NCBI RefSeq assembly: GCF_024502345.1
Contig: NZ_JALDNN010000001.1
Reading direction: 5' to 3' (one strand)
Source: Escherichia coli
Lineage (GTDB): Bacteria > Pseudomonadota > Gammaproteobacteria > Enterobacterales > Enterobacteriaceae
DNA: 64,000 nucleotides
The notes under the pieces are model-generated. The model was not told the origin of the DNA, did not search any database, and was given only the letters and a program-made list of their open reading frames with translations. This document shows, in pieces, positions 13,711 to 47,407 of the stretch. The position numbers and the translations under genes were made by a program. How positions within the stretch are numbered: the first letter of the stretch is position 1; each line of letters starts with the position of its first letter.

Positions 13711-14055
13711 ATGTATTTACGACCAGACGAGGTGGCGCGCGTACTTGAAAAAGTCGGTTTTACTGTCGATGTGGTAACCCAGAAAGCGTATGGTTACCGC
13801 CGTGGGGAAAATTATGTCTATGTTAATCGCGAAGCGCGAATGGGACGTACCGCTCTGGTAATTCATCCAACATTAAAAGAACGCAGTTCGACACTGGCTG
13901 AACCCGCTTCCGATATTAAAACTTGCGATCATTACCAGCAATTTCCGCTCTATTTAGCAGGCGAGCGACACGAGCATTACGGTATCCCGCATGGCTTTAG
14001 TTCGCGTGTTGCGCTTGAACGTTATTTGAATGGTTTATTTGGCGAAGCCAGTTAA
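13711..14055 (+). CDS. ygaC: DUF2002 family protein
   Basis: 114 aa [24 protein letters not shown]... Confidence 0.9.
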
Positions 14056-24009: not shown

Positions 24010-25101
<1,092 letters not shown>

Positions 25102-25323: not shown

Positions 25324-27012
25324 TTACAAATAGAGATAGTTCAGCGGTTCTCCTGTTTTCCCTAAAAGAAGAGCGCTACGCCCAGGAATATTGATATTTA
25401 GAGTTCCGCCTCTAAGCATAAATGCTTTACCAGGGGGGATAATTTTTCGGGTATTATTAATAATAATGTTAACGCTATTACTCCCCATGTTTTTATATTT
25501 TCCAGGTTGCAATTTGTTAGGCCAGGCACCTTCAACTTCTTCGTTTCCTTTATTTATTATAACTAGTCCATCATGAGGAGAGTGATTAATGTTCACCGAA
25601 TCCCCACGACTAAAGGCCAGAACGTTTTTAGTTGCAAATACACCCTCAAATGCGCTCCATATTCCTGCTTTATCTATATATAATGCGTGGAATTCATTGT
25701 AGAGCTGCTGATAGGTAGAGCAACCTTTATTAAGCCACGCCTCACCGCCGACACGCGTCGACCCATCATAATTTTTAATTTCAGTCGTTGATTTTAATAC
25801 TTGGCCATCCCAGTAAACTAAAGGCCTGCTGAACGGGAGAGCGGCCATATATGCCATTGCTAATTGTTCATCTTGTTGATGGTTAAATAGAAAGTCATTG
25901 AAAAGATTGCCATTGTTAGGAAAAACGTGGTTAATGTTAATCAATATCCGTCTTTTTGATGGGATGCTTGAGATTGTTGAACCCGGTTTTGATGCAAGGG
26001 TTTGGAGATCGCCACCAAATGAAAAAGCTTTTATCGTCTTCATGAGCAATGAAAAATCAATGGCGCTTAAATCATCTCTTTCATAAAGCAGCGATGACAT
26101 TTGTTGTTCATCCAACTGACAAGTTACCAGATATTCCATGTAATTCATAACGGCTTTTTCATGATATTTTGGGTTAAATAAGTTAGTATTGTGTAATCGC
26201 TCATTATAATTTTTAAGCGGTGGGGTTATTGATCTTTCTATTTGTTCATGTTTTGAGTGTTTTGCCGCATCATAACGTAAACCTCGTACGCCATATTTTC
26301 GCATTTCACGAACGTATTGATTTTGCAGCATAATAACCTGGTCACTTTTGGGGGTTGTTTTAGGCATTCCATTTAAACGCTTTTCTTTTAATGCATGGAG
26401 GTTTTCCCATTCATCCTTAGAAATATTATCTTTACTTGCTTCGAAGTCTTTTGCAGTGAGATGTATATCTTCTGGATGGATTTGTTTACGTTCTTTTGTT
26501 ACTGGATCTATAGTAAATGGAATCAAAACCTGACCTTGCCAATAGCCAGGGATACCACCTTCTATATCTTTACTGATCTTCGCTCGTATATCAGCAGAGG
26601 GATAATCCAGGTCATTTTTACCACTACCCCCGATTCCCATAAAGTTAAAGGTATAATCAGGAATGATATCGATACCAAATTTTTTAGCATCTTTAACCAA
26701 TGCGATAAAATCCTGCAAATCTCCCATTGGATTATGGATGGTACAAAGATCTTCGGGTTGATAAGCGTGAAACCAGTAACCTTTTTCTTCTTCGGGAGTT
26801 TCTGGTCCGTCGGCGCGGAAAGTTGTCACTGGAGGGATTTGTATATACCCATAATGGCAACGTGCAAACTCAGACATATTTTCCCTGATTTGCTGGTAGG
26901 TGGCATTAAAAGCATGAAGAATCGCTTCGCCAGGTTTTTTGGGGGTGATGATTTCACATTGTGATTTCTGAACAGCAGTAAGGGATTTACGCTCAAGTGT
27001 TTGCCGTAGATG
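25324..27012 (-). pseudogene. ygaQ: YgaQ-like glycoside-hydrolase-family protein, N-terminally truncated by IS3
   Basis: 517 aa ORF (25324-26877) with no upstream partner; coding region abuts IS3 left end at 27013. Confidence 0.7.
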
Positions 27013-28240: not shown

Positions 28241-28324
28241 GCCTGTGTCCATATTACGTGGGTAGGATCATAATGCTTTGGTTGCTGGCGTATCTGACAG
28301 CTTCTTCGGCGTGAAGGTCGTTGT

Positions 28325-29381
28325 GGCTTTGTTGAATAAATCAGATTTCGGGTAAGTCTCCCCCGTAGCGGGTTGTGTTTTCAGGCAATACGCACGCTTT
28401 CAGGCATACCTGCTTTCGTCATTTTGTTCAGCGCTCGTACCAGGGCCATAGCCTCTGCAACCTGACCATCGTAGTCACGCAGTGTCAGTGAACCCCCGAA
28501 CAGCTGTTTTACCCGGTACATCGCCGTTTCCGCTATCGAGCGACGGTTGTAATCTGTTGTCCATTTCCACCGCGCATTACTCCCGGTCATTCGCTGATTA
28601 GCCACTGCACGGTTACGGTCTGCATATTCACCGGGCCAGTAACCCGCACCTTTTCGGGGAGGGATAAGCGCGCTGATTTTCTTACGCCGCAGTTCATCGT
28701 GACATAGCCGGGTATCGTAAGCGCCATCGGCGGCGGCTGACCTGATTTTCCGGTGGGTTTGCCGGATTAACCCGGGGAAGGCCTCTGAGTCCGTAACGTT
28801 GTTCAGCGACAGGTCAGCGCAGATGATTTCATGTGTTTTACTGTCAACGGCGAGATGCAGCTTACGCCAGATACGGCGGCGTTCCTGGCCATGCTTTTTG
28901 ACTTTCCACTCGCCTTCACCGAAGACCTTCAGCCCGGTGGAATCAATTACCAGGTGTGCGATTTCACCCCGGGTGGGCGTTTTGAAACTGACATTAACCG
29001 ACTTTGCCCGCCTGCTGACACAGCTGTAATCCGGGCAGCGTAGCGGAACGTTCATCAGAGAAAAAATGGAATCAATAAAGCCCTGCGCAGCGCGCAGGGT
29101 CAGCCTGAATACGCGTTTAATGACCAGCACAGTCGTGATGGCAAGGTCAGAATAGCGCTGAGGTCTGCCTCGTGAAGAAGGTGTTGCTGACTCATACCAG
29201 GCCTGAATAGCTTCATCATCCAGCCAGAAAGTTATGGAGCCACGGTTGATGAGGGCTTTATTGTAGGTGGGCCAGTTGGTGATTTTGAACTTTTGCTTTG
29301 CCACGGAACGGTCTGCGTTGTCGGGAAGATACGTGATCTGATCCTTCAACTCAGCAAAAGTTCGATTTATTCAACAAAGCC
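28325..29381 (-). mobile_element. IS903-family element, complete (1057 bp)
   Basis: 18-bp terminal inverted repeats GGCTTTGTTGAATAAATC at both ends; flanking 9-mers differ (GGTCGTTGT vs TGTCCCCAT). Confidence 0.93.
28381..29349 (-). CDS. IS903-family DDE transposase
   Basis: 322 aa track ORF; YREK-type signature (YNRRSIAETAMYRVKQ); true start may be an internal GTG. Confidence 0.9.
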   Translation of the reverse strand: MKDQITYLPDNADRSVAKQKFKITNWPTYNKALINRGSITFWLDDEAIQAWYESATPSSRGRPQRYSDLAITTVLVIKRVFRLTLRAAQGFIDSIFSLMNVPLRCPDYSCVSRRAKSVNVSFKTPTRGEIAHLVIDSTGLKVFGEGEWKVKKHGQERRRIWRKLHLAVDSKTHEIICADLSLNNVTDSEAFPGLIRQTHRKIRSAAADGAYDTRLCHDELRRKKISALIPPRKGAGYWPGEYADRNRAVANQRMTGSNARWKWTTDYNRRSIAETAMYRVKQLFGGSLTLRDYDGQVAEAMALVRALNKMTKAGMPESVRIA

Positions 29382-29480
29382 TGTCCCCATTTGTAAATGG
29401 CTATGCTTAGTCCACATAGGTTAATGGTGTGATTATTAATTCTTTAACTAAATCAAGATAGTTAATGCATCATGGGAGAG

Positions 29481-29900
29481 TTATGCGGCAATAACTTTGC
29501 ATTTTTGAGACGAAACATAGTCACTCCACCATTGCATGAGAACCACCCGTTCAGTGAGATACTCTGCACGATTGTAGGCTGCAATTATTTCATCTTTCTT
29601 CGAGTGGGCAAGGGCGGCTTCTAAGACATCAGTCCTAAACTTGCCAGACTCCTCAGCAGCCGTTCTAGCAATGGATCGCATACCGTGAGCTACAAGCTCA
29701 CCTCCGAAACCCATACGGATTATGGCCGCATTAGCTGTTTGTTCATGCATGTGATTGAGTGGAGCTTTGATACTGGGGAACACCCACTCTCTATGCCCGC
29801 TGATGACTTTCATTAAATCCAAAACTCGCAAAGCTTCTTTGCTCAGTGGAACTTTGTGAGGCTTCTTCATTTTCATAAACTCCGCCGGGATGTTCCACAT
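29481..29900 (-). pseudogene. Tyrosine integrase, 3' fragment (C-terminal ~139 aa)
   Basis: Aligns with the C-terminus of the intact integrase at 45621-46862 (...HGMRSIARTAA...ALAHSKKDEIIAAYNRAEYLTERVVLMQWWSDYV); no upstream integrase-coding sequence; AT-rich. Confidence 0.75.
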
Positions 29901-30062
29901 GCCAGTTTCAATATCAATAGCCGCCTTTCGACGGTGTAGTGGGGAGAGTATTGCTTACAAACGTAATGAAATTGTTTGAGTAGCTAGGCTACTGCATAGG
30001 ATTATTTTGTTCTGTTAATATATCCGTTAATATAGATAGATTGATCCAATTGAGTTTAAGGA

Positions 30063-31772
30063 ATGAGTATGTTTCAGATATCAGCTGGAGTGTTCTTTGA
30101 TTTAGATAAAATAGAAAAACACGATGGCGCATTTGTTTTTTATTCAAATGTTGATGTGTCTTTCTCGGTGGAAAACACCTCCCCTCTTTTTAAAGCAAAT
30201 AAAATAAGTCATGATGGTATAAACTGTTATGTGGTAAACTATACTCTCCTGACCGAAAAACCAGAACGAATTGAAGCTGGAGTCGTAGTTAGGGCTGGTG
30301 ATGAGGATTATAGGCAACAATTTATTTTATTATGGGAATTCTATTTTGATTGTGTGGCTAGAGTAGAAAAAGAATCGGTTAAAAAAATATGTGCATTATC
30401 AAATTTTAATAAACATCACTCAAAAATTGCGCTTGAAGTTGCCCCATATTTAGTGGAGATTAACCGAAGAGTTTCATTTGATGATGTCTCTGGGTTTTCT
30501 GCTTTTATTAAAGATGTAGTGAATCTAAATAGATCTGCCTTTAAATCTTTAATGGCAGCGTTAAAAATAATTAGTGATTCAAAAGAATCATTGTCAACCA
30601 ACTTTGACCTGACTTATTCCATGTTAGTCTATGCCTTGGAGTCTTTGTCTCAAAGAAATGATAACTATAAGTCTGATTGGGATGACTACGATCAAAAAAC
30701 CAGAGGTGAATTAGAGTCTGTATTTGAGCATATGCCTGGTGAGGATGTTTGTAAAATTAAATCAATACTTATTGAAGGCAAACAATTCAGATTACAAAAA
30801 AGGTTCAAAGATTTTATACTGAAAAATCTTGAAGAAAATTATTTCAATGAAACAGAGAGATATCCAATCCGCTATAGCTTCCTTAGTAGAGCTTTAGATA
30901 ATTTATACAAAATCAGGTCTTCTTTTGTCCATGAGCTTAAGCCACTTGATGCAATGATCTCGAAAGCCTACAATCCTGTTGGTGATTGTCTGGTTCTTTT
31001 TGGCGAACCTCACTTCAGTTACTCTGGATTGCTTCGACTTCTTCGCCATGTGATAATAAATTTTTGCCGTAAAAACTACAGTCAAAAAAGAGAGTATGTT
31101 AATTGGGTGATGGAAACATCGGGTGTAATGGTTGCAGAGATATCTGCACAATATTGGCTCTGGAATGCAGACGGATTTACAGCTAAAAGTATAGCGAAGT
31201 GGTTTAGTGAATACCTAAATATGTTAAATTTAGGCGAAGTCACTGATTTGCAGTCTATCATGGACAAAATTGAGATAATCTATGACCAATCCAAAAAAGA
31301 ATATAAAAATGGGTTGTTGTATTTTTATTTCTTATATAACTTAATGCATAATGGAAATAAGGGTGAATGGCTTGAGTTTGCGAACAAGCGAAGTTCTATA
31401 CTTGTTTGTGATATATATTGGTATTCATGCTCTCCATATTTATATAAATCATTTACTAATGTTTCAAATGGTATTGCTGATATAAAAACATTGAGAAACT
31501 TTTTGTCTTGTTTTAACGAATATGATAAAAATAAATTTAAGCCAAATCGTTTAAATCTCCCTGCAATGACCGAAGTAATTATGTTGGCTTGCGCAGCAAA
31601 TTCATTCTTCAGAATTGGAATGTATCAAGACTATGTTTTAATGGGCAATAGAGCGATGAGAGAAATTGCTTCAGTAAAAGATGTATTTTATTATATAAAA
31701 GAACGATTAAGTAATTCACAACTTATTGAATTGGACGAGTGCTTGAGATTGTATAGAAAAAAAGGGGGCTAA
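30063..31772 (+). CDS. Hypothetical protein, 569 aa, AT-rich, no family recognised
   Basis: Single long ORF with strong AT bias; GAGT-containing RBS-like sequence before the ATG; bracketed by integrase 3' remnants and inverted IS903 copies. Confidence 0.75.
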   Translation: MSMFQISAGVFFDLDKIEKHDGAFVFYSNVDVSFSVENTSPLFKANKISHDGINCYVVNYTLLTEKPERIEAGVVVRAGDEDYRQQFILLWEFYFDCVARVEKESVKKICALSNFNKHHSKIALEVAPYLVEINRRVSFDDVSGFSAFIKDVVNLNRSAFKSLMAALKIISDSKESLSTNFDLTYSMLVYALESLSQRNDNYKSDWDDYDQKTRGELESVFEHMPGEDVCKIKSILIEGKQFRLQKRFKDFILKNLEENYFNETERYPIRYSFLSRALDNLYKIRSSFVHELKPLDAMISKAYNPVGDCLVLFGEPHFSYSGLLRLLRHVIINFCRKNYSQKREYVNWVMETSGVMVAEISAQYWLWNADGFTAKSIAKWFSEYLNMLNLGEVTDLQSIMDKIEIIYDQSKKEYKNGLLYFYFLYNLMHNGNKGEWLEFANKRSSILVCDIYWYSCSPYLYKSFTNVSNGIADIKTLRNFLSCFNEYDKNKFKPNRLNLPAMTEVIMLACAANSFFRIGMYQDYVLMGNRAMREIASVKDVFYYIKERLSNSQLIELDECLRLYRKKGG

Positions 31773-31932
31773 CCCCTTTTATTTTTAACGTATTCTCCCC
31801 ACCAATCCATCAATTCAATTCGCTGCACGAGATAAGTAGAACGATTGTATGCTTTTCTAACTTCATTTTTATCACTGTGGGCTAAGGCAGACTCGATAAC
31901 ATCAGGATTTAATCCAGCTTCATTCATGGCTG
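31769..31932 (-). pseudogene. Tyrosine integrase, 3' remnant (~50 codons), truncated by IS903
   Basis: Reverse strand translates ...AMNEAGLNPDVIESALAHSDKNEVRKAYNRSTYLVQRIELMDWWGEYVKNKRG*; abuts IS903 end at 31933. Confidence 0.55.
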
Positions 31933-32673
31933 GGCTTTGTTGAATAAATCGAACTTTTGCTGAGTTGAAGGATCAGATCACGTATCTTCCCGACAACGCA
32001 GACCGTTCCGTGGCAAAGCAAAAGTTCAAAATCACCAACTGGCCCACCTACAATAAAGCCCTCATCAACCGTGGCTCCATAACTTTCTGGCTGGATGATG
32101 AAGCTATTCAGGCCTGGTATGAGTCAGCAACACCTTCTTCACGAGGCAGACCTCAGCGCTATTCTGACCTTGCCATCACGACTGTGCTGGTCATTAAACG
32201 CGTATTCAGGCTGACCCTGCGCGCTGCGCAGGGCTTTATTGATTCCATTTTTTCTCTGATGAACGTTCCGCTACGCTGCCCGGATTACAGCTGTGTCAGC
32301 AGGCGGGCAAAGTCGGTTAATGTCAGTTTCAAAACGCCCACCCGGGGTGAAATCGCACACCTGGTAATTGATTCCACCGGGCTGAAGGTCTTCGGTGAAG
32401 GCGAGTGGAAAGTCAAAAAGCATGGCCAGGAACGCCGCCGTATCTGGCGTAAGCTGCATCTCGCCGTTGACAGTAAAACACATGAAATCATCTGCGCTGA
32501 CCTGTCGCTGAACAACGTTACGGACTCAGAGGCCTTCCCCGGGTTAATCCGGCAAACCCACCGGAAAATCAGGTCAGCCGCCGCCGATGGCGCTTACGAT
32601 ACCCGGCTATGTCACGATGAACTGCGGCGTAAGAAAATCAGCGCGCTTATCCCTCCCCGAAAAGGTGCGGGTT
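31933..32673 (+). mobile_element. IS903-family element, truncated second copy (~741 bp), inverted relative to copy 1
   Basis: Starts with GGCTTTGTTGAATAAATCGAACTTTTGCTGAG; identical to copy 1 up to ...AAAGGTGCGGGTT, then diverges into the yfjP-like fragment. Confidence 0.9.
31965..32673 (+). pseudogene. IS903-family transposase, C-terminally truncated
   Basis: First ~236 codons identical to the copy-1 transposase; track ORF continues in unrelated out-of-frame sequence. Confidence 0.8.
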
Positions 32674-33094
32674 GCATCACACCGTTCCAGAACTGCTCGT
32701 CCACCGACAGCGCACGGTCATCAGCTTTGATGACCCACAGCACCAGGTCAAGCTCTGGCAGCATACGCCGGTACAGGGCGCGGTATTCATGGTCCCGTTG
32801 TCCGTTCTCTCCCACGCCCGGTAAATCAACAATCACCAGACTGTGACGACCACTGCGCAGCCGGAAGCGCAGTATGTCGCGGGTGCAGGCGTTCACATCA
32901 CTGACGGCGGAGACTTCCCCCCGAAAGAGTTCGTTACAGAGCGACGACTTACCGGCACCACTCTTGCCCATGATGCCAATCACCGGCTCGTAGTGGGTCA
33001 GATTCTGAATACGTTCAAGAATAAGCTGGCGAAGCGTATCGGGAAGCGACGCCAGCGGTTTTTCCAGGGCCTGAAGGCCATCAGTTTTATTCAT
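32674..33094 (-). pseudogene. yfjP: YfjP/YkfA/YeeP-family GTPase, N-terminal fragment
   Basis: MNKTDGLQALEKPLASLPDTLRQLILERIQNLTHYEPVIGIMGKSGAGKSSLCNELF... (P-loop GKSGAGKS); cut short at the IS903 junction. Confidence 0.75.
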
Positions 33095-33726: not shown

Positions 33727-36540
33727 ATGCCAATGGAGAGCTGTACGCAAATGAACGCCGTAGAAATTGAACAAGCCATCACGGATCTTGCAGAGCAACC
33801 CTTTGATCCTATAGAGTTTCCTTATGCTTTTCTTGAAGCCTTTGGTAACAAGGAAACGACTGTCAAACGCTTGCGCGCCGGTGCATCAAACAAATCCGAC
33901 TTGGGCGGTGTTCTCCAGAGCAATAATATTCACATTCTGACCTGCGAAGCAGGGACTGTGACTCAGATGTTGGCCGCGCTCAAGGCTAGCCCTGCGACAA
34001 CTAAAGCCAAGGCGAAGTTCATCCTGGCTACAGATGGCAAAGATTTCGAAGCTGAAGACCTCGTTAGCGGTCAGACTGTCGCTTGCGCCTTTAAAGACTT
34101 CCCAGATCACTTCGGCTTTTTCTTGCCATTAGCAGGCATTAGCACAGTTCGTCAGATTTGTGAGAACTCCTTTGACATTCGGGCCACTAGCCGGCTGAAT
34201 CGTCTGTATGTCGAGTTGTTGAAAGATAACCCTACCTGGGGGACGGCGGAGCGACGTCATGACATGAACAAATTCATGACTCGGCTGATCTTTTGTTTTT
34301 TCGCTGAGGATACTGACATTTTCGTGGGTAAGGGACGCTTTACTGAAACCGTTGCGCAGATGAGTACAAGAGATTCGTCGAATACGCATGAAGTTATCGC
34401 TACCTTGTTTCGTGCCATGAACACCAGTAACAAAGATAGAGCCGCCGCTGGCATCCCGCGCTGGGCCAATGAGTTTCCTTATGTCAACGGACGCTTGTTC
34501 TCTGGGAGTAATGATGTACCACTGTTCAGTAAGATTGCACGGTCTTATTTGCTCCATGTGGGTAGCCTTGACTGGACCAAGATTAATCCGGATATCTTTG
34601 GCTCGATGATTCAGGCAATTGCCGAAGACGAAGAACGCGGAGAGCTGGGGATGCATTACACCAGCGTACCCAACATCTTAAAAGTTTTGAATCCACTATT
34701 TCTGGACGACCTGCGCGCAAAGCTGGATGAGGCGGGTGACAATCCGCGTATGTTGCTTAACCTGCGTAAGCGCATTTCCCACATCCGTGTGTTCGACCCA
34801 GCGTGCGGTTCTGGTAACTTTTTGGTTATCGCGTACAAGGAAATGCGTGCCATTGAGGCCGAAATCAACAAGCGGCGTAATGAGCCAGATCGCGCCTCGG
34901 ATATCCCACTTACCAACTTTCGCGGGATTGAACTAAGAGATTTCCCGGCAGAGATCGCCCGCCTTGCGCTTGTTATCGCTGAGTACCAATGTGATGTACT
35001 GTACCGTGGGCTGCGGTTGGCCTTGGCTGAGCTTCTTCCGTTACGCAACGAAAATTGGATTACCTGTGGCAATGCACTACGGCTCGACTGGTTAAGAATT
35101 TGCCCGCCGACAGGAACAGGTGTGAAATTACATGGCGATGACTTGTTTGGATCTCCGCTTGATCAGGCAGAGATCGACTTTGAGAATGAAGGCGGAGAGA
35201 CATACATTTGCGGTAACCCACCATACCTTGGTTCAAAGTGGCAGACGGATGAACATAAAGCTGATCTTGGCACAATCTTTTCTGGTCGCGTGAAAAATTG
35301 GAAATCGCTCGATTATGTTGCTGGCTGGTTCCTGAAAGCCGCTGACTATGGTAGCCAGACAAGTTCCCAGGCTGCTTTTGTTGCCACTAATTCAATCAGC
35401 CAAGGGCAGCAAGTGTCGATTCTGTGGCCGGAAATATTCAAGGCAGGACAAGAGATTAGTTTCGCTTACACGAGCTTTAAGTGGTCGAACCTCGCTACTC
35501 ACAACGCCGGGGTCACAGTTGTTATCATCGGAATTTCTAACTGTGTAGGAAAGTCGCGACGCCTCTTTTCGGCTGGAGGAGACAATGGTGCGACGACGTG
35601 TCGTGAGGTGGAGCGCATCAACGCCTATTTGATCGCTGGCCCTAACATCATTGTGGAGGGGGACAGTTGTCCAGCCGACAGTCTTGCAACGATGCAGTTC
35701 GGTAACCACCCGTACTATGGTGCATCACTGATCTTTTCGAGATCTGAAGCACAGCAGATGATGTCTGTCGATCCGCGTACGGCGCGTTTTATTCGCCCAC
35801 TATATGGCTCCCAAGAGTTCATTTCCGCTGTGCCACGAGCCTGTCTATGGATTAACGACGATGAGGCTGACGAAGCGGGGACGATTCCTCTGATAGCTGA
35901 GCGTATGAGCGCCGTAGCAAGTGCTAGACGTGCAAAAAAACAAGACAAGGCAGCCCAGAAACTGGCTAAGACTCCATATCGCTTTCGCGACCAGCAGACA
36001 TCTACGAATCATATTCTTGTGGTTCCTCGAGTCAGTTCAGAGAACCGTCCTTGCTTGCCGGTTGGATTACTTGACTCTGACTCTATCGTTCAAGATCAAG
36101 CATTCGCCCTTTACGACGCTCCTCTCTGGAACCTCGCCATCATAGCGAGTCGCCTGCATCTAGTTTGGATCGCCACGGTTTGTGGAAAGTTAGAGACACG
36201 CTACCGCTATTCAAACACCCTCGGCTGGAATACTTTCCCGCTCCCAACACTCACTGAGAAAAATAAGGCAGACCTCACGCGCTGTGCAGAGGATATTCTT
36301 CTGACTAGGGAGCATCACTTCCCTGCAACCATTGCAGACCTTTATGACCCCGAGAAGATGCCAGACGACCTGCGTATTGTGCACGAGCGTAATGACGAAG
36401 TGCTTGAGCGTATTTACATTGGGCGCCGCTTTAAGAATGACACAGAGCGGCTTGAGAAGCTGTTTGACCTTTATACTAAGATGGCCGCTTCAACTGCATC
36501 GGGCAAAAGCAATAAACGTAAAGTGGGAACCAATGCATGA
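33727..36540 (+). CDS. MmeI/PglX-like gamma-class N6-adenine DNA methyltransferase, 937 aa; no recognisable N-terminal PD-ExK motif
   Basis: Motif X-like HYTS, motif I VFDPACGSGNFLV, motif IV ICGNPPYLG; other blocks (RLIFCFFAEDTDIF, FPYVNGRLF, AFVATNSISQGQQVSILWP, LETRYRYSNTLGWNTFP) resemble the MmeI/PglX family from memory. Start could be Met-9 (33751). Confidence 0.85.
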   Translation: MPMESCTQMNAVEIEQAITDLAEQPFDPIEFPYAFLEAFGNKETTVKRLRAGASNKSDLGGVLQSNNIHILTCEAGTVTQMLAALKASPATTKAKAKFILATDGKDFEAEDLVSGQTVACAFKDFPDHFGFFLPLAGISTVRQICENSFDIRATSRLNRLYVELLKDNPTWGTAERRHDMNKFMTRLIFCFFAEDTDIFVGKGRFTETVAQMSTRDSSNTHEVIATLFRAMNTSNKDRAAAGIPRWANEFPYVNGRLFSGSNDVPLFSKIARSYLLHVGSLDWTKINPDIFGSMIQAIAEDEERGELGMHYTSVPNILKVLNPLFLDDLRAKLDEAGDNPRMLLNLRKRISHIRVFDPACGSGNFLVIAYKEMRAIEAEINKRRNEPDRASDIPLTNFRGIELRDFPAEIARLALVIAEYQCDVLYRGLRLALAELLPLRNENWITCGNALRLDWLRICPPTGTGVKLHGDDLFGSPLDQAEIDFENEGGETYICGNPPYLGSKWQTDEHKADLGTIFSGRVKNWKSLDYVAGWFLKAADYGSQTSSQAAFVATNSISQGQQVSILWPEIFKAGQEISFAYTSFKWSNLATHNAGVTVVIIGISNCVGKSRRLFSAGGDNGATTCREVERINAYLIAGPNIIVEGDSCPADSLATMQFGNHPYYGASLIFSRSEAQQMMSVDPRTARFIRPLYGSQEFISAVPRACLWINDDEADEAGTIPLIAERMSAVASARRAKKQDKAAQKLAKTPYRFRDQQTSTNHILVVPRVSSENRPCLPVGLLDSDSIVQDQAFALYDAPLWNLAIIASRLHLVWIATVCGKLETRYRYSNTLGWNTFPLPTLTEKNKADLTRCAEDILLTREHHFPATIADLYDPEKMPDDLRIVHERNDEVLERIYIGRRFKNDTERLEKLFDLYTKMAASTASGKSNKRKVGTNA

Positions 36541-38582
36541 GCAACAAGATTAGATCTGTACCGTCAGTTTCTGTTACCTACTCACGCAACGGAGCATCGA
36601 CCAAGGCTAATTCTCTTGGGATGCGTCCTATGCAAGAAAGGGCTTATGAGAAGCGCGGAGAACAATATCTTCTCATAAAGTCGCCGCCCGCCTCTGGCAA
36701 GAGTCGTGCGCTGATGTTCGTCGCACTCGATAAACTCGCAAACCAGGGGATCAAACAGGCAATCATTGTCGTGCCGGAAAAATCTATCGGCGCGAGCTTC
36801 AACGATGAACCGCTATCGCAGTTTGGATTCTGGGCTGATTGGCATGTTGAACCTAAGTGGAATCTGTGCAACGCCCCCGGTAACGACAACGGCGGCAAGG
36901 TAAAATCTTTCGGCTCTTTTCTTGAAAGTAGCGACAAGGTGCTTGTTTGTACACACGCAACCTTTCGCTTCGCGGTCGATGCCTACGGTGTAGAGGCGTT
37001 TGACGATCGCCTGATCGCCGTCGATGAATTTCACCATGTGTCCGCTAACCCGGATAACAAGCTTGGTCAGCATCTGGGACAGTTCATTGAGCGTGACAAG
37101 ACGCACATCGTGGCCATGACCGGCTCCTACTTCCGGGGAGATGCGGAAGCCGTTTTGGCTCCTCAGGATGAGTCTAGGTTCGATACCGTCACCTACACCT
37201 ACTACGAACAACTCAACGGTTACGAATACCTCAAACAGCTTGATATCGGATACTTCTTTTATAGTGGATCATACATTGATGACATCCTCAATGTCCTCGA
37301 TCCTGACAAGAAAACGATTATCCATATTCCCAACGTCAATTCGCGCGAGAGTACGAAGGATAAAATTAAGGAGGTGGAGCACATTCTGAGCGAGCTTGGC
37401 GATTGGCAAGGTGCGGATCCTACGACTGGTTTTCAGCTAGTCAAGCGCCCCGATGGCCATGTGTTGCGTATTGCTGACCTGGTGGACCCAGCCAGTCAAG
37501 GCAAGATTCAGGAAAGCCTCCGAGCTCCAGAAATGAAGACAGACCGTGACTATGTAGACATCATTATTGCACTTGGTATGGCGAAGGAAGGTTTCGACTG
37601 GATCTGGTGCGAACATGCGCTGACTGTTGGCTACCGTGCCAGCCTGACTGAGATCGTGCAGATTATCGGTCGCGCTACTCGCGACGCGCCGGGTAAAACC
37701 CGCGCGAGATTTACTAACTTGATCGCCGAGCCCGACGCTGTAGAGGGCGCAGTAACTGAGGCAGTCAACGATACCTTGAAAGCTATCGCGGCGAGCCTGT
37801 TGATGGAACAGGTACTGGCTCCGCGCTTCGAGTTCAAGCCCAAGAATCCTGAAATCGGTCCGACTCCAGGCTTTGATTATGGTGATGGAGGATATGACCC
37901 GGATAGCTGCAATTTTGGTGTTAATGAGCAGACAGGGACGTATCAAATCGAGATTAAGGGACTTGCCGAGCCTAGGAGCAAAGAGGCGGCACGTATCTGC
38001 CAGGAAGATTTAAACGAAGTGATCGCGGCCTTTGTGCAGGATAAGCCCGCCATCGAACGAGGCCTGTTCGATGAAGAGCTGATCCCTGAAGAGTTAACAC
38101 AGGTTCGTATGGGTAAGATCATCAAAGAAAAGTATCCTGAACTTGATGCTGAAGATCAGGAGGCTGTACGTCAGCATGCTATCGCCGCCCTTAACCTCAC
38201 GCAGCAGGCCAAGCGTCTTGCTACCGGTGAAAACGATGGGACGCTCAATACTGCTCTTATTGACGGAGTGCGTCGCTTTGCAATGGATGTGCGCGATTTA
38301 GACATAGACCTTATCGACCGCATCAATCCCTTTGGTGAAGCCTACGCTATCCTTGCTAAGACGATGAGTGAAGACAGTTTGAAGCAGGTCGCGGCGGCCA
38401 TCTCGGCCAAGCGTACTTCGATCACGCCTGAAGATGCCAAGGTGATCGCCAAGCGTGCCGCTGAATTCAAACGTGAACGTGGGCGCCTCCCATCGTTAAC
38501 TTCGCTGGATGCTTGGGAAAAACACCTTGCTGAAGGTGCAGCCGCGTTTATGCGTTTTAGGGCGGAGGGACGTTATGAGTAA
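36537..38582 (+). CDS. SF2 DExH-box helicase (ResIII-like), 681 aa, with ~270 aa C-terminal region of unknown function
   Basis: Motif I PPASGKS, motif II AVDEFHHV, motif III MTGS, motif VI QIIGRATRD; ATG overlaps the methyltransferase stop (ATGA). Confidence 0.85.
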   Translation: MSNKIRSVPSVSVTYSRNGASTKANSLGMRPMQERAYEKRGEQYLLIKSPPASGKSRALMFVALDKLANQGIKQAIIVVPEKSIGASFNDEPLSQFGFWADWHVEPKWNLCNAPGNDNGGKVKSFGSFLESSDKVLVCTHATFRFAVDAYGVEAFDDRLIAVDEFHHVSANPDNKLGQHLGQFIERDKTHIVAMTGSYFRGDAEAVLAPQDESRFDTVTYTYYEQLNGYEYLKQLDIGYFFYSGSYIDDILNVLDPDKKTIIHIPNVNSRESTKDKIKEVEHILSELGDWQGADPTTGFQLVKRPDGHVLRIADLVDPASQGKIQESLRAPEMKTDRDYVDIIIALGMAKEGFDWIWCEHALTVGYRASLTEIVQIIGRATRDAPGKTRARFTNLIAEPDAVEGAVTEAVNDTLKAIAASLLMEQVLAPRFEFKPKNPEIGPTPGFDYGDGGYDPDSCNFGVNEQTGTYQIEIKGLAEPRSKEAARICQEDLNEVIAAFVQDKPAIERGLFDEELIPEELTQVRMGKIIKEKYPELDAEDQEAVRQHAIAALNLTQQAKRLATGENDGTLNTALIDGVRRFAMDVRDLDIDLIDRINPFGEAYAILAKTMSEDSLKQVAAAISAKRTSITPEDAKVIAKRAAEFKRERGRLPSLTSLDAWEKHLAEGAAAFMRFRAEGRYE

Positions 38583-39753
38583 TTCTGATTTAGACGATTT
38601 GGCGGCAGAACTTGCTGAATTTGCACCACCGGAGAAGAAAAAAGGACGTCCAGCCAGCGAGGAACGCATCATCGCAGGTTTTGAGGAAATCCAGCGCTTC
38701 GCTGACCAACATGGACGTGCGCCGCAACACGGCGAAGAGCGTGAGATCTTTGAGCGCCTCTATGCAGTGCGGCTCGACCGGCTACGCAGTCTCCCAGACT
38801 GCCGTGCCTTGCTAGAGCCGCTGGATCATCAAGGCTTATTGGCTGGAGGGGGTGATGTAGCGGAGTCAGCGGACGAAATTATCGATATCGATAATTTGGC
38901 TGCCGAACTGACGGATGTTTCCAGCGAGGATGATATCACAGTCTTGCGTCATGTTCGTGCTAGCGCCGAAAAGCGTGCTGTACAAGGGATCGCGGATCGC
39001 AAGCCGTGCGAGGATTTTGATACATTCAAACCGCTATTTGAACAGGTGCGCAGTGATCTAAGTTCAGGGTTAAGAGTGACCCGACCTTTTGGACAGTATG
39101 CAACGATTGAAGTGGGCCATTGGTTCATCCTGGATGGTCAAACGGCTTATGTGGCTGAGGAAGGTGAAGAGTTCGATTCTCCACAGGGGAAGAAAGATGC
39201 TCGGCTGCGTGTCATTTATTCGAATGGTACAGAAAGTAACCTGCTTCGGCTGTCATTAGTTCGTGCTTTGTATAAAGACGAAACAGCACGTCGAATTACC
39301 GATCCAGACATGGGGCCTTTATTCAGCGATGCTCTAGAAGAGAGCGATCTAGAAAGTGGCACCATTTATGTATTGCGTTCGCTATCAGATAACCCTTATG
39401 TGGCCGAACATCGTGATGTTATTCACAAGATTGGTGTGACTGGCGGCAAGGTCGAGACTCGTATTGCTAATGCTGAACACGATTCCACCTATCTGTTGGC
39501 GAAGGTAGAGGTGGTCGCTTCATACAAACTCGCAGGTATCAACCGCACCCGGATGGAAAACCTGTTTCACAGGTTGTTTGCACCCGCAAGGCTTAACATT
39601 ACCATTAACGACCGTTTCGGCCATCCAGTACAGCCCGAGGAATGGTTTCTCGTTCCGTTATTCGTTATCGATGAGGCTGTTGCACGTATTAAGGATGGTA
39701 GCATCATTGGGTATGTTTATGACCCCATGTCTGCGAAACTGGTGAAGGCATAG
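38575..39753 (+). CDS. GIY-YIG-like / T5orf172-like domain protein, ~392 aa (tentative domain call)
   Basis: GGAGG RBS then ATG at 38575 overlapping helicase stop (ATGAGTAA); C-terminal region GTIYVLRS...YVAEHRDVIHKIGVTGGKVETRIAN resembles GIY...YIG-R; acidic N-terminus. Confidence 0.65.
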   Translation: MSNSDLDDLAAELAEFAPPEKKKGRPASEERIIAGFEEIQRFADQHGRAPQHGEEREIFERLYAVRLDRLRSLPDCRALLEPLDHQGLLAGGGDVAESADEIIDIDNLAAELTDVSSEDDITVLRHVRASAEKRAVQGIADRKPCEDFDTFKPLFEQVRSDLSSGLRVTRPFGQYATIEVGHWFILDGQTAYVAEEGEEFDSPQGKKDARLRVIYSNGTESNLLRLSLVRALYKDETARRITDPDMGPLFSDALEESDLESGTIYVLRSLSDNPYVAEHRDVIHKIGVTGGKVETRIANAEHDSTYLLAKVEVVASYKLAGINRTRMENLFHRLFAPARLNITINDRFGHPVQPEEWFLVPLFVIDEAVARIKDGSIIGYVYDPMSAKLVKA

Positions 39754-47044: not shown

Positions 47045-47407
47045 TGGTGGAGCTGGCGGGAGTTGAACCCGCGTCCGAAATTCCTACATCCTCGGTACTA
47101 CATGCTTAGTCAGTCTTTACATTCGCTTGCCAGCTGCGGACGGACACGCCACTAACAAACTAGCCTGATTAAGTTTTAACGCTTCAACCCCAGGCAGGGC
47201 TTCCACGCGATCTCTTTTGGGTTTGACCTCTCTTGATCCCCGTCCTAAGAGCGGAGGCTAGGGAGAGAGGGCTCTAAGCAGGTTATTAAGCTGCTAAAGC
47301 GTAGTTTTCGTCGTTTGCGACTATTTTTTGCGGCTTTTTACGAGGCCAACCGCCCCTCGGCATGCACCTTGGGTTTCGCAAATCCCGTCGAATCCAGAAT
47401 CAGCCCC
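47045..47407 (-). ncRNA. ssrA: tmRNA (SsrA), 363 nt
   Basis: Reverse complement begins GGGGCTGATTCTGGATTCGACGGG and ends GGTTCAACTCCCGCCAGCTCCACCA; terminator-like hairpin follows at ~46975-47015. Confidence 0.97.

Follow-up and report, generated by a model that had tools for sequence, protein, structure and literature searches.

An AT-rich gene in the genome of Escherichia coli (NCBI RefSeq assembly GCF_024502345.1, contig NZ_JALDNN010000001.1) lies between the 3' ends of two integrase genes, which raises the questions of what it encodes, where it came from and how it came to be enclosed in this way. The gene is located in the middle of a stretch of 64,000 nucleotides, which is referred to as the window. 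A preliminary description, based on the DNA sequence alone, had considered it an orphan without a recognisable motif and a candidate for anti-phage defence, and had explained its surroundings by serial replacement of cassettes. The analysis reported here identifies the gene as cargo of P4-like satellites that encodes a HEPN-TPR protein. The gene, its hotspot location and the HEPN assignment are already in the literature; it is a known, unproven defence candidate.

The gene and its counterparts in P4-like satellites

The six-frame list of open reading frames contains an intact frame of 569 residues at 30063–31772 on the plus strand. The true gene is most likely 30069–31772 and comprises 567 residues, because three lines of evidence agree. 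The second ATG (30069) corresponds to the start M-[FL]-Q-I in 28 of 28 homologues of alignment A1, a Shine-Dalgarno sequence AAGGA is located at 30058–30062, 6 nt 5' of this ATG, and the RefSeq entry of the orthologue from strain ATCC 8739 (WP_000486482) has a length of 567 residues. The GC content of the frame is 0.33 (GC3 0.29), compared with 0.49 for the whole window and 0.5–0.59 for the flanking island DNA and insertion sequences (IS). The gene is thus a large AT-rich one, as had been described, and the identity of the two flanking fragments as 3' parts of tyrosine integrase genes was confirmed by matches to NF007246, which are specified further below.

When 5,426 complete E. coli genomes were searched by megablast, the query proved to be a mosaic. 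Positions 29916–31932 (2,017 bp) are 99.7–99.9% identical to 18 records including ATCC 8739, from which the segment differs in 5 nucleotides (99.8% identity). The two proteins differ in 2 of 567 residues (A21T and Y343S), and both changes look conservative. In ATCC 8739, the order of the P4-like satellite is primase, ..., delta, psu, [cos], gene, int, ssrA; in NS-NP030, too, the gene occupies this slot of an ssrA-located P4-like satellite, with psu/cos on one side and int on the other. The cargo gene and int of the intact satellites are convergent and overlap by 4 bp, and the same overlap is found in the window. The gene belongs to the variable slot between psu/cos and int, because the conserved backbone stops before it and few genomes continue into the cargo. 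For a query spanning psu to the gene, the conserved P4 backbone ends at position 13864 of the ATCC 8739 locus (L001) in approximately 2,250 genomes, and psu, cos and the gene are contiguous in only 16 of these. The variable cassette of ATCC 8739 starts just past cos, 137 bp upstream of the segment retained in the window.

A P4-like element of Pectobacterium at ssrA encodes a 69%-identical protein in the same slot, and an 87%-identical homologue of Enterobacter asburiae is located near ssrA/smpB. In its intact relatives the gene is therefore placed between psu/cos and int within the variable segment, as is characteristic of cargo of the P4-like psu-int hotspot. This agrees with the earlier assumption of integrase-adjacent hotspot cargo, and the survey of related islands (ATCC 8739, NS-NP030, Pectobacterium) confirmed that the gene recurs in this variable position. 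At the level of sequence, these comparisons establish that the gene originated in the satellite hotspot. The satellite backbone (alpha/primase, sid, delta, psu, cos, a full int and att) is absent around the gene in the window, where the P4-derived DNA amounts to 2,017 bp only. In two other E. coli genomes the same gene is damaged: it is split by an IS1A insertion in H13 (NZ_CP144926.1), and only its 3' third is left in H19 (NZ_AP018395.1). Loss of the gene is therefore tolerated, and the gene is dispensable.

The psu-int locus of P4-like satellites was defined by Rousset et al. (2022, PMC9122126) as a hotspot at which anti-phage systems are found, and the gene is included in that study. Its Table S1A lists NC_010468 / WP_000486482, and Table S1B contains this protein sequence as system #38 'HEPN_Apea' with 42 occurrences and the remark 'Likely a RNAse'. 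In Table S2B, this sequence is given as pFR83 'HEPN-TPR', a system of one gene from the P4 locus of E. coli ATCC 8739. According to the above differences at the DNA and protein level and the common overlap with int, pFR83 contains the same gene as the window. In its source ATCC 8739 the satellite is intact and adjoins ssrA, whereas in the window the cargo and 164 bp of int are found between two IS903-type copies. Literature searches for 'HEPN-TPR' and WP_000486482 yielded no later paper on the protein.

Architecture and distribution of the protein family

The protein is a fusion of a beta-domain, a HEPN domain and a TPR-like domain, which fits the label 'HEPN-TPR' of Rousset et al. AlphaFold2 models with a mean predicted local distance difference test (pLDDT) score of 84 consist of a beta-sheet N-terminal domain, a helical middle part and a helical-repeat C-terminus. 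Both hallmarks of the HEPN superfamily, an alpha-helical core fold and an R-x4-6-H motif, were found. The motif is RSSFVH at 30915–30932, an R-x4-H motif of the HEPN type, so that the earlier statement that no motif could be assigned has to be withdrawn. In an alignment of 29 sequences 15 residues are invariant, including E191-S192-L193, Y280, R283, S284 and H288. R283, S284 and H288 are identical in 29 of 29 sequences down to 18% identity, and Y280 (in LYKIRSSFVHE) is conserved as in the ApeA motif Y-R-x-R-N-x-I-V-H. The protein thus demonstrably combines a HEPN fold and an invariant catalytic motif with a TPR-like C-terminus. This C-terminal domain presumably serves as a sensor or interaction domain. 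The extreme N-terminus (residues 1–27, 30069–30150), with M1, Q3, I4, G7, F9, S26 and N27, is conserved like the catalytic motif down to 18% identity; this conservation suggests a functional role, for example in gating or oligomerisation.

In the libraries, the single sequence clearly matched only one entry, the domain model 'Cas13-ApeA' of PADLOC (residues 150–275, E 7e-6), which also matched three of the ten other homologues tested. Among the HEPN domains of homologues, HEPN_Apea (PF18739) was the only recurrent Pfam family; it was matched by 7 of 22 at E ≤ 0.1 and by 1 at E ≤ 0.001, with a best value of 8.6e-4. For the window protein, NCBIfam and PDB sequences (phmmer and profile searches) gave no useful match, PHROGs gave matches with E > 0.1 only, and a Foldseek search of the whole protein against the PDB gave none below E 0.26. 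No relative of the N-terminal domain was identified in the whole-protein sequence and Foldseek searches. The closest solved minimal HEPN protein is HepT, for the window protein and for ApeA alike. Remote homology and structure prediction, which had been proposed as a check, hence led to a HEPN domain and not to a structural or housekeeping protein of phages.

The gene is not an orphan. A word-indexed search identified 70 clusters (Enterobacterales, Vibrio, Photobacterium, Aeromonas, Ferrimonas, Lacrimispora, Cellulomonas), and an exhaustive search with a profile of the HEPN domain identified 1,012 representative clusters at E ≤ 0.001, of which 355 had E ≤ 1e-30. Of the full-length proteins in the best 150 matches, nearly all comprise about 550–680 residues and have the domain at approximately residues 120–365; shorter entries are fragment-like. 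The family is spread over Proteobacteria, Firmicutes, Actinobacteria and cyanobacteria.

The homologues inspected are associated with mobile elements and defence islands. The gene of Vibrio navarrensis adjoins GajA/GajB-type genes (Gabija), transposases and a trypsin-NTPase Avs-like gene, and that of Aeromonas media is part of an integrase-bounded island and adjoins SIR2 and HerA. In a variable region of Klebsiella, the homologue is accompanied by a resolvase gene and a umuD-like gene, and a Ferrimonas homologue lies next to DUF4145 and a kinase/phosphatase pair. A full-length homologue with 23% identity was found between terL and the portal gene of a Lacrimispora prophage (L013, 7001–8701). 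Plasmid-borne homologues occur in Bacillus thuringiensis, Paenibacillus, Acinetobacter, Ralstonia and Bradyrhizobium, and one homologue is encoded on a gut phage contig. This distribution is what is expected of an accessory conflict gene and not of a structural or housekeeping gene. Two details of these loci are added here: in V. navarrensis (L007, 3131–7492) the GajA-type gene is interrupted by an rve-family transposase, and the gap between terL and portal of the Lacrimispora prophage is an unusual site for an accessory gene.

Function of the HEPN-TPR protein and alternative explanations

Defence by cleavage of RNA is the most likely, albeit unproven, function of the protein, and we regard it as rather probable. 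We infer an RNase activity, a trigger, a dimerisation of HEPN domains and a defence phenotype, which would be connected as follows. The protein would be inactive in uninfected cells, and an infection cue would be sensed by the TPR-like domain, the N-terminal domain or both. Two HEPN domains would pair into a composite active site with the predicted catalytic residues R283 and H288, and RNA would be cut; targets could be tRNA anticodon loops or other RNA of host or phage. Translation would stop and phage growth would be blocked, by abortive infection or by direct restriction. Among characterised HEPN systems that consist of a single protein, ApeA and DARNA act on tRNA anticodon loops, which they cleave once activated.

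Several observations weigh against this function. Rousset et al. (2022, PMC9122126) collected their validated systems in Table S2A and 'additional tested systems' in Table S2B, and HEPN-TPR is not among the seven validated ones. The panels consisted of eight coliphages in MG1655, and of P2 and four P2-like phages in E. coli C. Seven P4 systems protected against at least one of the eight coliphages, TIR-NLR alone protected against P2-like phages, and 12 of the 19 P4 systems were likewise without protection. The sequence likeness to known HEPN families is weak: a Pfam search with the single sequence gave no match, neither to the LA2681-type HEPN nor to HEPN_Apea (PF18739), and the alignment with ApeA given below is not significant. 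Finally, the copy in the window may be poorly expressed, because its upstream DNA is cut to 153 bp and a crude consensus search found no sigma-70 consensus promoter on the plus strand of this remnant. Our confidence is not higher because the published test was negative, although a narrow phage range is common. The preliminary description had thus correctly flagged a defence candidate, as judged from the hotspot, the Gabija and SIR2-HerA neighbours and the HEPN motif; the candidate is, however, not new, since the same protein is contained in Rousset et al. 2022.

In order to assess the relation to ApeA, full-length proteins of the Ec2ApeA clade were retrieved by means of a partial sequence from a preprint supplement, and 20 were aligned. 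Canonical ApeA comprises approximately 583–600 residues and is all-helical with an N-terminal domain (NTD), a Mid domain and a C-terminal split HEPN domain (Juozapaitis et al. 2026 and Drobysheva et al. 2026, preprints). The catalytic Arg is R502 in Ec2ApeA and R521 in Ec1ApeA. ApeA assembles as decamers or dodecamers and cleaves tRNA in the anticodon loop; Ec2ApeA responds to 5'-phosphorylated deoxydinucleotides as activators, and Ec1ApeA additionally cleaves the genomes of single-stranded RNA phages. Like ApeA (Gao et al. 2020; Juozapaitis et al. 2026; Drobysheva et al. 2026), the window protein is the product of a single gene, has approximately 570–600 residues and is encoded on mobile elements. 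Both contain one HEPN domain with long insertions and have two motifs in common: Y-x-x-R-[SN]-x-[FI]-V-H, which marks the catalytic site, and [AI][LI]ESL, which belongs to a helix that precedes it. In ApeA, however, the HEPN domain is C-terminal instead of central, and a helical NTD and Mid domain take the place of the beta-rich N-terminus. The window protein has an additional TPR-like C-terminal domain, and the ligand pocket of ApeA is not recognisable.

It is improbable that the protein is a true member of ApeA, which like Ec1ApeA and Ec2ApeA would form a doughnut-shaped decamer and would cut tRNA anticodon loops upon binding of a small ligand, such as a 5'-phosphorylated deoxydinucleotide, in a pocket between NTD and HEPN domain. 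The label HEPN_Apea of Rousset et al. speaks for such a membership, as do the Cas13-ApeA match of PADLOC, the ALESL and Y-x-x-R-[SN]-x-[FI]-V-H motifs and the UniRef name 'Apea-like HEPN domain-containing protein' of one homologue. In contrast, the full-length PADLOC model of ApeA (PDLC02157) matches P0214, a protein of the Ec2ApeA clade that is 99% identical to Ec2ApeA across the first 399 residues, at E 2e-12 over residues 20–534, whereas the window protein is not among its matches even when E-values up to 1 are admitted. Alignment of the two families by hhalign is not significant (full length, E 0.26; HEPN domain, E 0.13); both R-x4-H motifs are in register in the single alignment to ApeA that was obtained. 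Furthermore, the catalytic Arg is at position 283 of 567 in a central HEPN domain and not at 502–521 of about 583–600, the termini are beta-rich and TPR-like, and none of the ApeA pocket residues could be aligned. For these reasons (non-matching PDLC02157, non-significant hhalign alignment and differing architecture) canonical ApeA membership was rejected. Judging from sequence comparison, we read the protein as one that contains an ApeA-like HEPN domain in a different context, outside the ApeA system.

Also unlikely, though somewhat less so than ApeA membership, is a role other than defence, i.e. a selfish or satellite function as an element-stabilising HEPN toxin (addiction) or as a factor in the interplay of P4 with its helper P2. 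Such a role would be consistent with the lack of a defence phenotype in the published test and with the fact that the gene has outlived the rest of the satellite in the window. However, neither a small antitoxin gene nor an MNT gene is adjacent in the window or in the homologue loci inspected. Since no partner gene is conserved in these loci, a toxin-antitoxin pair was rejected. Members of the family also occur outside P4 elements, namely on plasmids, in a Firmicutes prophage and in defence islands, which argues against a P4-specific role; moreover, the inactivated copies of H13 (IS1) and H19 (truncation) indicate that the loss of the gene is tolerated. It is possible, though less likely than not, that in this genome the gene represents a silent relic, which is compatible with a defence function of the family: the gene would be intact because the decay is recent, and unexpressed because the deletion removed its promoter. 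The short upstream remnant without a consensus promoter and the heavy decay of the surrounding region are in line with this explanation. On the other hand, the frame is of full length with only two conservative-looking substitutions, the ribosome-binding site and the terminator hairpin are retained, the promoter scan was a crude consensus search, and read-through from adjoining DNA is possible.

Returning to defence by RNA cleavage, the proposal that the beta-domain/HEPN/TPR family is a distinct, unnamed single-protein immune system and not a subtype of ApeA has, in our judgement, about an even chance of being correct. In this system a particular phage protein or peptide would be bound by the TPR-like or the N-terminal domain, and this recognition would release the HEPN RNase. 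If so, the negative result of 2022 would reflect a narrow range of triggers or low native expression. In comparison, the HEPN domains of HepT/MntA, AbiV, AbiA and Csm6 comprise 130–150 residues and have an antitoxin, a polymerase of reverse-transcriptase type or a CARF partner, whereas the window protein is a single polypeptide of 567 residues with flanking domains of its own and without a partner gene. PrrC, RloC and DARNA resemble the expected logic of the window protein in that a latent HEPN RNase is switched on by an infection cue. Their sensors differ, being an ABC-ATPase in PrrC and RloC and sensing of single-stranded DNA in DARNA, and no sequence relationship to the window protein is detectable. 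Like Avs and TIR-NLR, which occur in the same P4 hotspot, and like the LA2681 HEPN-TPR fusions (Anantharaman et al. 2013), the window protein combines an effector with C-terminal TPR-like repeats. As in immune proteins with TPR sensors, these repeats could bind a phage protein or peptide. In contrast to Avs and TIR-NLR, the window protein lacks a STAND NTPase domain, and a Pfam match to the LA2681-type HEPN was not found.

The family is large, extends over several phyla, is mobile, occurs beside known defence systems and has an invariant nuclease motif, whereas the only reported test was negative. If defence were demonstrated, the HEPN RNase defences would gain a new sensor-effector architecture.

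Present layout of the locus

The coordinates of the features are given in Table 1.

Table 1. Features of the HEPN-TPR locus (positions refer to the window)
Feature	Position	Strand	Basis
IS903-type element (IS5 family), complete, 1,057 bp, terminal inverted repeats GGCTTTGTTGAATAAATC; left bound of the block	28325–29381	-	NF033579 IS5-family transposase, E 6e-107
int-A, 3' integrase fragment (coding 29481–29919) plus 99 bp downstream; 5' part deleted	29382–29919	-	NF007246 match, DNA comparison
Deletion junction; 4-bp microhomology AATA common to int-A and the upstream region of the P4 cargo	29916–29919		three-way comparison of window, L001 and L003
Native non-coding DNA 5' of the cargo gene (153 bp kept), with ribosome-binding site AAGGA (30058–30062)	29916–30068	+	DNA comparison with ATCC 8739
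HEPN-TPR gene, intact, P4 hotspot cargo, 567 residues	30069–31772	+	open reading frame call, RefSeq orthologue, family alignment, base-by-base comparison
N-terminal domain, residues 1–127, beta-sheet followed by helices	30069–30449	+	AlphaFold2 secondary structure (strands at 15–75), conservation
Central HEPN domain, residues 128–345, long insertions between core helices	30450–31103	+	
LVYALESLS helix with invariant E191-S192-L193; matches the WIA[IL]ESL helix of canonical ApeA	30624–30650	+	
R283-S-S-F-V-H288, HEPN R-x4-H catalytic motif	30915–30932	+	family alignment
C-terminal all-helical TPR-like repeat domain, residues 372–565	31182–31763	+	
Terminator-like hairpin AAAAGGGGGCTAACCCCTTTT, bidirectional, over the convergent stops of cargo gene and P4 integrase	31760–31780	both	
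P4-like satellite integrase, last 164 bp; 4-bp overlap with the stop of the cargo gene; truncated by the IS end at 31933	31769–31932	-	
IS903-type element, truncated, 741 of 1,057 bp; abuts a truncated YfjP/YeeP-type GTPase gene	31933–32673	+	

The extents of the two integrase fragments in Table 1 were determined by DNA homology. The left one contains an open reading frame of 139 residues (29481–29900) that matches positions 267–395 of the 413 positions of NF007246 (E 9e-48), and the right one a frame of 52 residues (31769–31927) that matches positions 347–395 (E 3e-19). A by-eye count on the translations gave approximately 57% identity over the common C-terminal stretch; the fragments thus stem from different integrases, as had been assumed. 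The earlier term 'same-strand' holds for the two fragments relative to each other, since both are on the minus strand; it does not hold relative to the gene, which is on the plus strand and thus antiparallel to them.

The left fragment int-A is 100% identical (window 29400–29919, megablast) to an integrase gene that is common in many E. coli. Its full-length counterpart in strain LR-64-1 is a 1,230-bp gene adjoining ssrA, which is 100% identical over the fragment; the island at this ssrA contains genes for a serine recombinase and ParB and is unrelated to the P4 satellite. The junction between int-A and the P4-derived DNA falls within the cargo cassette, 137 bp from its boundary, and precedes the start codon by 153 bp. 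This retained upstream region contains a short hairpin-forming inverted repeat, GTAGC-TAG-GCTAC, at 29981–29993, which could be an operator or a chance match.

The block 29382–31932 (2,551 bp) is enclosed by two inverted IS copies, a feature that had been missed in the preliminary description. We take them to be of the IS903 type, as suggested by the inverted repeat sequence and the length of the copy at 28325–29381. The truncated copy is 100% identical, in inverted orientation, to positions 28641–29381. A 9-bp target-site duplication is absent at the complete copy, as 28316–28324 reads GGTCGTTGT and 29382–29390 reads TGTCCCCAT, which indicates recombination or an adjacent deletion after insertion. 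The YfjP/YeeP-type GTPase gene (32612–33094, minus strand) has lost its 3' end where the truncated copy abuts; gene and IS copy are both cut at one boundary, and a deletion therefore took part of both. A functional composite transposon of the IS903 type was rejected, since the right copy comprises only 741 bp and the 9-bp flanks of the left copy differ. An inversion between the IS copies was rejected as well; it is not needed, because the gene and both integrase fragments are in native orientation relative to ssrA.

The ssrA gene of the window is located at 47045–47407 beside a third, different and intact integrase gene, approximately 15 kb from the remaining cargo and the 164 bp of int. According to the simplest history, several ssrA-targeting elements integrated in succession, after which deletions and IS903-type activity took place. 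The gene would originally have been the single-gene cargo in the psu/cos-int hotspot of a P4-like satellite located at ssrA, and further ssrA-targeting islands would later have stacked ahead of this satellite. Of the satellite, deletions and IS903-type activity would then have spared only the cargo gene together with 153 bp upstream of it and the terminal 164 bp of int. The double-integrase layout is hence ordinary island decay. The preliminary description had instead proposed that the integrase remnants testify to successive swaps of cargo at one integrase-adjacent slot. The presence of one cargo gene between the 3' ends of two different integrases and the rapid swapping of cargo known from P4 hotspots would agree with such replacement; nevertheless, it is very unlikely. 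The left fragment is the integrase of the separate ssrA island with serine recombinase and ParB genes, and the right fragment is the P4 integrase belonging to the cargo itself, cut by an IS end. The junction is located inside the upstream region of the cargo and not at the cassette boundary, with no more than the 4-bp microhomology AATA, and the IS903-type copies lack target duplications, one of them being truncated. A defence-hotspot gene that is intact after deletion of its satellite represents one route from satellite cargo to resident content of a chromosomal island.

A 22.5-kb query comprising positions 25000–47500 was compared with the 5,426 complete E. coli genomes, and no genome reached a coverage of 80% or more. 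The best match, strain 2013C-4282, had 65% coverage and 97% identity.

Directly to the right of the truncated IS copy, the stretch 33727–39753 encodes a protein of 937 residues that matches the PADLOC model of a Type IIG restriction-methyltransferase near end-to-end (E 4e-284), followed by open reading frames of 681 and 414 residues. In related E. coli loci, some of the corresponding genes are annotated as DEAD/DEAH helicase and GIY-YIG nuclease. This stretch is probably the first defence candidate of the preliminary description. To the left of the block, a second AT-rich gene (25324–26877, minus strand, GC content approximately 0.37, 517 residues) is located between an IS3 and glaH/lhgO/gabDT. 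NCBIfam and PADLOC searches with its product gave no match; its relatives are annotated as 'alpha amylase C-terminal domain-containing protein'.

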